From NCBI RefSeq assembly GCF_055900595.2, contig NZ_CM148325.1: a stretch of 64,000 nucleotides of DNA, one strand, 5' to 3'. The position numbers are program-made. Every line of letters starts with the position of its first letter. Position 1 is the stretch's first letter. Shown one piece after another: positions 54,001 to 57,000 of this stretch.

Positions 54001-57000
54001 CAGCAACAGCGGCTGGAACAGGCCGCTTACGAAATGACGGCGCTGCGTGCTGCGACCATTGAGCTTGGTCCGCTGGTGCGCGGTTTACCGCATTTGCGCA
54101 CTCTCCATCGCCAGCTGTATCAGGATATTTTCGACTGGGCGGGGCAACTGCGTGAAGTTGATATTTATCAGGGCGATACGCCGTTCTGCCACTTTGCTTA
54201 TATCGAAAAAGAGGGCAATGCCCTGATGCAGGATCTGGAGGAAGAAGGGTATCTGGTTGGCCTGGAGAAAACGAAGTTCGTCGAGCGGCTGGCACACTAC
54301 TATTGTGAAATCAACGTCCTGCATCCCTTCCGGGCGGGAAGTGGTCTGGCACAGCGGATCTTCTTCGAGCAACTGGCGATTCATGCTGGTTATCAACTGA
54401 GCTGGCAGGGTATCGAAAAAGAGGCCTGGAATCAGGCAAATCAGAGTGGGGCAATGGGTGATCTCACTGCGCTGCAGACGATATTTAGCAAAGTGGTAAG
54501 CGAAGCCGGGGAATCTGAGTAAAATAGCGCGGTTCTTTCGTACCGGAGCCGCCATGATCCTGCTTATTGATAACTACGATTCTTTCACCTGGAACCTCTA
54601 CCAGTACTTTTGTGAACTGGGGGCCGACGTGTTGGTTAAGCGCAACGATGCGTTGACGCTGGCGGATATCGACGCCCTGAAACCGCAAAAAATTGTCATC
54701 TCACCCGGCCCCTGTACGCCAGATGAAGCCGGGATCTCCCTTGACGTTATTCGTCACTATGCCGGACGCTTGCCGATTCTTGGTGTCTGCCTCGGTCATC
54801 AGGCAATGGCGCAGGCATTTGGCGGCAAAGTTGTGCGCGCCGCAAAGGTGATGCACGGCAAAACCTCGCCGATCACACATAACGGTGATGGCGTATTTAA
54901 GGGGCTGGCAGATCCACTCACCGTGACACGCTACCATTCGCTGGTGGTGGAGCCTGACTCATTACCGGAGTGCTTTGAAGTGACGGCCTGGAGCGAAACC
55001 CGCGAGATTATGGGGATTCGCCATCGCCAGTGGGATCTGGAAGGTGTGCAGTTCCATCCAGAAAGTATTCTCAGCGAACAAGGACATCAACTGCTGGCTA
55101 ATTTCCTGGAACGCTGATTTCTGATTGCCATTCAGTGATTTTTTATGCATATTTTGTGATTATAATTTCACATTGAGTTATGCGTAACAGGGTGATCATG
55201 AGATGGCAATTGAACAAACAGCAATTACACGCGCGACTTTCGATGAAGTGATCCTGCCGATTTATGCTCCGGCAGAGTTTATTCCGGTAAAAGGTCTGGG
55301 CAGCAGAATCTGGGATCAGCAAGGCAAGGAGTATGTCGATTTCGCGGGTGGCATTGCAGTTACGGCGTTGGGCCATTGCCATCCTGCGCTGGTGAACGCG
55401 TTAAAAACCCAGGGCGAAACTCTGTGGCATATCAGTAACGTTTTTACCAATGAACCGGCGCTGCGTCTTGGTCGTAAACTGATTGAGGCAACGTTTGCCG
55501 AACGCGTGGTGTTTATGAACTCCGGCACGGAAGCTAACGAAACAGCCTTTAAACTGGCACGCCATTACGCCTGTGTGCGTCATAGCCCGTTCAAAACCAA
55601 AATTATCGCCTTCCATAACGCTTTTCATGGTCGTTCGCTGTTTACCGTCTCGGTGGGCGGGCAGCCAAAATATTCCGACGGCTTTGGGCCAAAACCGGCA
55701 GACATCATCCACGTTCCCTTTAATGATCTCCACGCAGTGAAAGCGGTGATGGATGATCATACCTGTGCGGTGGTGGTTGAACCGATTCAGGGCGAGGGCG
55801 GCGTGACGGCTGCGATGCCAGAGTTTTTGCAGGGCTTGCGCGAACTCTGTGATGAGCATCAGGCATTATTGGTGTTTGATGAAGTGCAGTGCGGGATGGG
55901 GCGGACCGGAGATCTGTTTGCTTACATGCATTACGGCGTGACGCCGGATATTCTGACCTCCGCCAAAGCGTTAGGCGGCGGCTTCCCGATTAGCGCCATG
56001 CTGACTACGGCGGAGATTGCTTCTGCGTTTCATCCTGGTTCTCACGGTTCCACCTACGGCGGTAATCCACTGGCCTGTGCAGTAGCTGGCGCGGCGTTTG
56101 ATATCATCAATACTCCTGAAGTGCTGGAAGGCATTCACGCGAAACGCCAGCGTTTTGTGGACCATTTGCAGAAGATCGATCAGCAGTACGATGTGTTTAG
56201 CGATATTCGCGGTATGGGGCTGTTGATTGGCGCAGAGCTGAAACCACAGTACAAAGGTCGGGCGCGTGATTTCCTGTATGCGGGTGCCGAGGCAGGCGTA
56301 ATGGTGCTGAATGCCGGGCCTGATGTGATGCGTTTTGCGCCGTCGCTGGTGGTGGAAGATGCGGATATCGATGAAGGGATGCATCGTTTCGCCCACGCGG
56401 TGGCGAAGGTGATTGGGGCGTAAATAAGACGCGTCAGCGTCGCATCAGGCAAAAGATGTCGGATGCGGCGTGAACGCCTTATCCGACCTACGATTTGCTC
56501 CAGGCAATGAATATATTACGCCTTCGAATCCCGTAACTTCCGACTCAACCAAATCCCATGATGCGGTCGCTGCCGCCATGCCATCGACGAAATGGTGTGC
56601 ATGGTGTTCAGATGACCAATAACCCGCTGTAAATGCTGCTCCAGCGTGCCTGCTGCACCTTCGTGCGGCTGCATCTCCGGCGCATCCATAATATTGGCAT
56701 CGCCAGAACTACCTGGTTCGTCATATTCCAGTCGCTGCTGACAACGCTGAATGGCGATTTCACAAGACTGCAAATATTCTTGCGCCAGTTCAGGTGGCAA
56801 TGCCCGGTGTTCCCGTGCCAGCGTGGTCATGGCATTGATATGCTCAACAATAAACTGACTGTGCGTTACCCACAGTTTCATATCTGCCAGATAATGGCTG
56901 TTGAATGCCGGTTCCTGCATCGCCTGATTCAATGAGTTATACAGAGTGTTATGCGCCTGATTCACCCGCATTCGCTGCCAGGCCAGTGGCGTTGGTTGCG

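Follow-up and report, generated by a model that had tools for sequence, protein, structure and literature searches.

Repetitive extragenic palindromic (REP) sequences of Escherichia coli are bulged imperfect palindromes of the group-2 family associated with the transposase TnpA_REP (a REP-associated tyrosine transposase, RAYT), and they occur singly or as inverted pairs, which are termed BIMEs (for bacterial interspersed mosaic elements). In BIME-1, a z1 and a y unit are joined by a long L linker that bears a site for integration host factor (IHF), and in BIME-2, a z2 and a y unit are joined by a short linker (PMC3333891). BIME-1 linkers bind IHF, BIMEs bind gyrase and Pol I, and BIME-2 itself is a gyrase target that usually forms tandem arrays, such as REP325. 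TnpA_REP, which requires a GTAG tetranucleotide and an AA/GC bulge (PMC8266576), recognises the GTAG-bearing strand together with the bulge and cleaves and recombines BIMEs (PMC8266576, PMC3333891). In the 3' untranslated regions (3' UTRs) of transcripts, REPs act as partly Rho-dependent terminators and as mRNA stabilisers that block 3'->5' decay, and REPs between convergent genes correlate with a higher expression of both (bioRxiv 10.64898/2026.03.23.713779). Here, we describe the REPs of a 64-kb stretch of E. coli DNA (64,000 nt of contig NZ_CM148325.1, assembly GCF_055900595.2; hereafter the window), with particular attention to a pair of palindromes at 56424-56491 between argD and yhfK.

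We found that the palindromes of the window very probably belong to the Escherichia REP family (classes y, z1 and z2), located, singly or in inverted pairs, in 3' untranslated intergenic DNA; the identification is that of a textbook, already known repeat family. No remembered consensus was relied on. A pattern scan for z1-linker-y in species-representative genomes yielded 57 training loci (492 kb) from Escherichia albertii, Pseudocitrobacter faecalis and E. coli SCPM-O-B-8794, all unrelated to the loci of the window, and hidden Markov models (HMMs) of each class were built from 57 z1, 53 y and 5 z2 anchored instances. The HMM consensus of these independent loci was TGCCTGATGCGCTACGCTTATCAGGCCTAC for z1 and TGCCGGATGCGGCGTAAACGCCTTATCCGGCCTAC for y. 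Upon searching the whole 64 kb with the three models, we obtained seven palindromic units at five intergenic loci, with E values from 1.5e-11 to 8.9e-5:

19997-20025, z1, HMM E 1.5e-11
56458-56491, y, HMM E 3.4e-11 (39.1 bits)
56424-56451, z2, HMM E 3.3e-9 (model positions 1-28 of 37)
8258-8292, y, HMM E 1.1e-8
1568-1601, z2, HMM E 2.8e-7
25149-25176, z1, HMM E 4.2e-6
25220-25246, y, HMM E 8.9e-5

No further REP match emerged from this search of the 64-kb window, the next best having an E value of 0.18. A preliminary description of this DNA had listed REP palindromes at 1569-1600, 8259-8292, 20001-20025 and 56428-56491 as well as REP-like hairpins at 25150-25174 and 60014-60039. Reading the sequence, we found all six stretches to be present at these positions, and a class HMM match falls on each of the four palindromes. 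The first of the two REP-like hairpins proved to be a true z1 unit, while the second dropped out of the inventory (see below), to which the scan added a y unit at 25214-25248.

Several further measures accompany the profile matches. The REP tail motif CTTATCMGGCCTAC, with at most two mismatches, occurs 4 times against 0.46 expected, a count reached in 0 of 100 shuffles. A 72-nt query that covers the argD-yhfK element had matches in 5,425 of 5,426 E. coli genomes, each of 5,422 records showing 40 or more similar places, and most of the REP stretches fold, as RNA, clearly more stably than shuffled controls. All REP units are extragenic and 3' of at least one gene, with flanking open reading frames (ORFs) that are syntenic with annotated genes of E. 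coli K-12. Because profile matches, tail-motif excess, folds and copy number agree, we regard the REPs as real, non-random and well placed, and the earlier statement that they are ordinary for E. coli is borne out by the class profile matches, the copy number and the orthologous REPs that K-12 carries at 4 of the 5 loci. Rfam returned 0 matches at gathering thresholds for the whole window, and the RefSeq record of K-12 carries no REP features. A fixed-spacing full-length REP pattern matched the z2-like unit only, because REP classes differ in length.

Compared with described E. coli REPs, the units show nothing different in kind: common to both are the class consensus, the imperfect palindrome with its bulge, the extragenic 3'-UTR site, the high dispersed copy number and the compensated variation of the stems (changes relative to the class consensus are compensated in 4 units). 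From the sequence together with the folds, an AA/GC bulge can be read in 56457-56491, 56424-56451, 19997-20026, 1565-1601 and 25149-25178, and as a CA/GC variant in the y unit at 8258-8292 and an AA/GT variant in the y unit at 25214-25248. The GTAG is intact in 3 of the 7 units (56488-56491, as CTAC; 19997-20000; 8289-8292, as CTAC) and also in a half unit (8314-8317); it is changed to GACG at 1565-1568, to GCAG at 25175-25178 (- strand) and to TTCA at 25214-25217, and it is missing from the z2 unit that is truncated at the argD stop (56424). Since GTAG or part of the stem is lost in 4 of the 7 units, we regard these four as decaying copies. With GTAG plus bulge as the criteria of TnpA_REP, the y unit at 56457-56491, the z1 unit at 19997-20026 and the y unit at 8258-8292 look still processable by this enzyme, and the other four look like fossils.

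The pair between argD and yhfK, described before as a two-copy BIME at 56428-56491, is indeed a z2 unit with an inverted y unit, its full extent being 56424-56491. The two genes are convergent, with the argD stop TAA at 56421-56423 and the yhfK stop at 56516-56518, and their 92-bp spacer holds the following:

56424-56451, + strand, z2 unit in GTAG-first orientation, without its first 9 nt (GTAG and stem foot)
56452-56456, linker AAAGA of 5 nt, joining the non-GTAG ends of z2 and y and fitting an S-type BIME-2 linker
56457-56491, - strand, y unit with GTAG, AA/GC bulge and both stems intact
56424-56482, + strand, predicted long inter-unit hairpin in the RNA of the argD 3' UTR (minimum free energy -30.3 kcal/mol, z -3.88; equalled in stability by 0 of 200 shuffles)

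The z2 unit starts at the first base 3' of the argD stop codon, and over all its 28 nt it shows no difference from the reverse complement of z2 instances in other genomes. On the - strand, the y unit reads GTAG GTCGGAT AA GGCG TTCA CGCC GC ATCCGAC A, with a compensated C>T / G>A change in the outer stem relative to the consensus, and it folds into a hairpin of its own on that strand. The predicted folds accordingly differ between the two transcripts, with z2 and y pairing together on the argD strand and forming separate hairpins on the yhfK strand. Like BIME-2, the element consists of z2 and inverted y joined at their non-GTAG ends by a 5-nt linker; unlike BIME-2, it has only one pair, and its z2 arm lacks the 9 GTAG-proximal nucleotides. 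Hence, given a single pair in place of the tandem arrays of classical BIME-2, the element is, as judged from its sequence, a single, partial BIME-2-type unit in which 5 nt link a 5'-truncated z2 to an inverted y that is intact.

A single z2-y pair was also found at argD-yhfK in the six other E. coli genomes that we aligned. K-12 and strain R32_14_1F both have 11-bp deletions inside this z2, and in all aligned genomes outside the lineage of the window, the CCTAC end of the y unit is absent and the downstream sequence is different. In R32_14_1F, a 1-bp deletion right before the argD stop, adjoining the 11-bp deletion of z2, lengthens the annotated argD by one codon. REPs within ~15 nt of stop codons have reportedly been linked to ribosome stalling and trans-translation by Liang, Rudd and Deutscher (Mol Cell 2015). 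On this model, the hairpin at the argD stop, which a terminating ribosome would have to melt, might tune the synthesis of ArgD by such stalling and trans-translation, a speculation to which we give low odds. If it were true, the 11-bp deletions of K-12 and R32_14_1F and the differing y tail of most E. coli would constitute an allelic series with differing ArgD output. A hairpin that starts at the argD stop and has natural deletion variants is mildly interesting and could bear on the effect of REPs on translation termination.

The position of the palindromes at 3' gene ends, together with the strong hairpin that we found at every convergent junction of the window, could also be read as gene-specific intrinsic (Rho-independent) terminators that resemble REPs by chance. 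Such an identity appears very improbable to us. REPs and bidirectional intrinsic terminators do share the placement between convergent genes and a stable palindrome that is readable from both strands, and a terminator-like site was flagged at the inner hairpin of z2 (- strand, 56446-56428), which has TTATTTAC behind it. This was, however, the sole flagged site: none of the REP units leads into a proper U-tract, terminator-like matches in the region numbered 6 against 6.9 in shuffles, and genuine U-tract terminators adjoin the REPs as separate hairpins (8201-8243, 25279-25302 and 20035-20069), so that we rejected a Rho-independent terminator identity for the units. The true bidirectional intrinsic terminators of the window are the non-REP hairpins 8201-8243, 13521-13558 and 25279-25302. 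Class-specific profile matches with E values from 1e-11 to 1e-4, and sequences that recur at least 40 times per genome, likewise argue against terminators that are specific to single genes. The view that the matches are GC-rich palindromes that arose by chance, the intergenic background being GC-rich itself, could draw on short head motifs such as GCCKGATGCG, for which a half-site Hamming scan with 2 mismatches gave hundreds of matches throughout coding DNA and which are uninformative alone. Yet the significant REP matches are all intergenic, and the seven best full-length profile matches (E <= 1e-4) are set apart from the rest (E >= 0.18). The shuffles of the tail motif and the HMM scan refute the chance reading, whose probability we consider next to nil.

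A different question is posed by the second of the REP-like hairpins of the preliminary description, which lies between the convergent genes yhfA and prkB:

60014-60039, perfect hairpin with an 11-bp stem and a 4-nt loop (TTGT)

Its predicted fold is stable (-17.6 kcal/mol, z -5.0), and the corresponding position in K-12 is occupied by a diverged hairpin. We rejected 60014-60039 as a REP, since it had no significant match to the REP HMMs (best E 3.7) and, where it was matched at all (109 of 5,426 E. coli genomes), occurs at one place per genome. It could nevertheless be the remnant of a collapsed REP pair in which an internal deletion left GCCGGATAA...TTATCCGGC: its arms are outer-stem words of y in both orientations (GCCGGATAA and TTATCCGGC), 9-nt matches to the y HMM lie on both strands at 60016-60037 (weak and not significant, E 3.7-5.5), and REP-internal deletions occur elsewhere in the region (argD-yhfK, yhgE-hslO). 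Against such a remnant, which we hold to be unlikely, stand the missing GTAG/CTAC, bulge and inner stem, besides the insignificant HMM matches and the single copy per genome, and the hairpin of other sequence in K-12 fits a locus-specific hairpin that is conserved in place. By sequence and occurrence, 60014-60039 is a locus-specific hairpin and not a REP.

Returning to the REP family, we propose, by analogy with its described members, that transcription from either side would let the units fold into stable bulged hairpins, with the one long inter-unit hairpin as a modelled alternative fold on the argD strand. Such hairpins would block 3'->5' exonucleases and would pause RNA polymerase, leading to partial Rho-dependent termination, the net effect being that the two convergent transcripts would be insulated from each other. 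At the DNA level, BIME-2 units would serve as gyrase targets, and the L linker of a BIME-1 at 25149-25248 would be a putative IHF site. The family would have been spread and remodelled by TnpA_REP, a domesticated single-strand transposase that needs GTAG and bulge. Several points weigh against this picture. In the argD-yhfK spacer, we found no tandem repetition with flanking motifs of type s, l or r, which, together with the truncated z2 arm, marks its BIME as partial or atypical; the terminator consensus scan gave only a weak match on the - strand, with the shuffle-level count quoted above; and K-12 synteny places no RAYT in the 64-kb window. The functions attributed to these copies are those that the literature suggests for REPs, the effects of which are context-dependent (bioRxiv 10.64898/2026.03.23.713779). 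Overall, five intergenic palindromes and several of the small indels that set the window apart from K-12 find their explanation in the REP/BIME inventory, whose importance beyond correct annotation is small.

The hairpin that the preliminary description had listed at 25150-25174 turned out to be one half of a BIME-1 between nudE and mrcA, the second unit of which had been missed:

25149-25178, - strand, z1 unit with GTAG changed to GCAG and a compensated inner stem (GCA/TGC for GCG/CGC); orthologue present in K-12
25179-25213, L linker of 35 nt, the canonical length
25214-25248, + strand, decayed y unit with TTCA in place of GTAG and mismatches in both stems

The consensus site of IHF is WATCAANNNNTTR. 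At 25189-25201, the L linker carries CAATATATTGATT, whose - strand, AATCAATATATTG, matches this consensus perfectly, whereas the linker consensus of the BIME-1 family has one mismatch to it. Among z1-y linkers from other genomes, 66 of 99 are 35 nt long, with the consensus AAGGTTTCTGCAATATATTGAATTTGCACGATTTT, to which the linker of the window is identical at 26 of 35 positions, the core CTGCAATATATTGA included. A weight matrix built from the 66 linkers scored 27.9 bits exactly at 25179-25213, the best value of the window (next best 12.5; mean -49.6, standard deviation 12.6). When the linker was used as a query in E. coli genomes, we obtained a median of 2 places per genome. The element resembles BIME-1 (RIP/RIB) in its inverted z1 and y with facing GTAG ends, in its 35-nt L linker with the IHF consensus and in being single-copy at its locus; it differs in that both GTAGs are mutated and the stems of y are degraded, the HMM E value of y being 8.9e-5 for the window copy versus 5.1e-8 for the K-12 orthologue. 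We conclude from this architecture that 25149-25248 is a complete BIME-1, with a counterpart in K-12, and mrcA has a separate U-tract terminator at 25279-25302. Among the training loci, tandem z1-linker-y arrays were seen in E. albertii (locus 6976-7477, four copies, ~147 bp period) and in Pseudocitrobacter faecalis (locus 8824-9104, three copies, ~112 bp period); these may be atypical BIMEs, as BIME-1 is described as single-copy.

The remaining three loci hold single units, one of them with a probable half unit:

19997-20026, + strand, single z1 unit between yhgE and hslO, which converge; GTAG intact
8258-8292, - strand, y unit 3' of yhgF; GTAG intact, outer stem compensated, orthologue in K-12
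8314-8334, + strand, probable half unit (GTAGGCC...TTTA) in inverse orientation to the y unit at 8258-8292, from which a 21-nt linker separates it; it ends at the yhgF stop (8332-8334)
1565-1601, + strand, z2-like unit 3' of nfuA and upstream of gntT, with GTAG changed to GACG (GTAG kept in K-12)

At yhgE-hslO, the alignment shows a 72-bp gap in K-12, in which z1 is missing and only 11 nt of REP are left (AGCGCATCAGG). Of 5,426 E. coli genomes, 1,819 have an allele that spans this z1, so that the site is polymorphic. Beside the REP indel, the last ~10 codons of yhgE and ~60 bp downstream (19900-19996) differ from K-12, and at least three alleles of this 3' region occur among E. coli genomes, with query coverage classes of 100%, 58% and 32%. 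Downstream of yhgF, we read 8314-8334 as probably a REP half unit on the basis of its sequence; it had no significant HMM match, being too short, and its K-12 copy is more REP-like. Together with the tail of the y unit, it is predicted to form a long hairpin on the strand of the yhgF transcript (-32.3 kcal/mol, z -4.4). The z2-like unit at 1565-1601 has a compensated outer stem (GCCCGAT/ATCGGGC) and a predicted fold of -27.5 kcal/mol (z -6.6).

With respect to gene orientation, three of the five REP loci lie between convergent genes and two between tandem genes, with no divergent case, so that the earlier placement of REPs at convergent gene ends holds for three loci and fails for the co-directional 1565-1601 (nfuA, gntT) and 8258-8334 (yhgF, feoA). 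This 3:2 split fits the genome-wide distribution, in which ~60% of REPs lie between convergent and ~40% between tandem genes (bioRxiv 10.64898/2026.03.23.713779). Strong hairpins are present at 7 of 7 convergent junctions in the window and REPs at 3 of the 7. Upon counting all intergenic hairpins with a dG of -15 kcal/mol or below, we obtained 30, of which only 5 are REPs; hence, REPs do not account for most of the intergenic structure, contrary to what had been proposed.

The window is collinear with 3.482-3.548 Mb of E. coli K-12 MG1655, inverted relative to its coordinates and spanning gntT to yheS, with an identity of 96.2% across 60.5 kb. At argD-yhfK, 12 of 5,442 matching E. coli records were at least 99% identical, the majority being at ~94.5%, and 9-18 records per locus search in E. 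coli genomes reached 99%. Since so few records match at this level, the source is, by sequence identity, a divergent lineage still listed under E. coli. The REP classes there are unchanged, so this divergence leaves the REP reading unaffected. By alignments and profile search, 4 of the 5 REP loci of the window have orthologous REPs in K-12, and the two genomes compare as follows:

argD-yhfK, nudE-mrcA, yhgF-feoA and nfuA-gntT, REP loci common to the window and K-12
yhgE-hslO, REP locus in the window and not in K-12
trpS-yhfZ, y + z1 BIME after trpS, in K-12 only
frlR-yhfS, z2 after frlR, in K-12 only

From these alignments, the REP differences from K-12 are lineage-specific gains, losses and deletions, as is normal for the REP family. 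We consider this presence, absence and decay a small, typical example of turnover, which may fine-tune the 3'-end processing of adjoining genes. The K-12 BIME directly 3' of the trpS stop codon comprises 131 bp (y, a 27-nt linker and z1; 30487-30617 of the K-12 locus sequence) and is cleanly missing at 38095-38112 of the window, where the common terminator hairpin at 38110-38133 alone is left. The window lacks yhfL and the frlABCDR operon, which together take up ~5.2 kb in K-12. The yhfZ-yhfS block (38112-45669) is the segment most divergent from K-12, at 94.0% identity, and the convergent genes yhfS and cysG are separated by only ~520 bp (45664-46181) with two hairpins, 45693-45733 and 46154-46173, neither of them a REP.

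Between envZ and pck, the window has a 2.7-kb insert (13555-16211) that is absent from K-12. It had been described as lacking flanking REPs, and this was confirmed: its borders carry the intrinsic terminator 13521-13558 and a non-REP hairpin at 16164-16191, and HMM and sequence checks revealed no REP at either border, which rules out an involvement of REPs there. The insert itself contains no REP, transposase or RAYT. Two of its three ORFs (15007-15537 and 15516-16160) had no Pfam match, and the first (13683-14969) encodes, at a Pfam E value of 1e-6, the SUKH-1 / SMI1-KNR4 domain, which is typical of the immunity proteins of polymorphic toxin systems.

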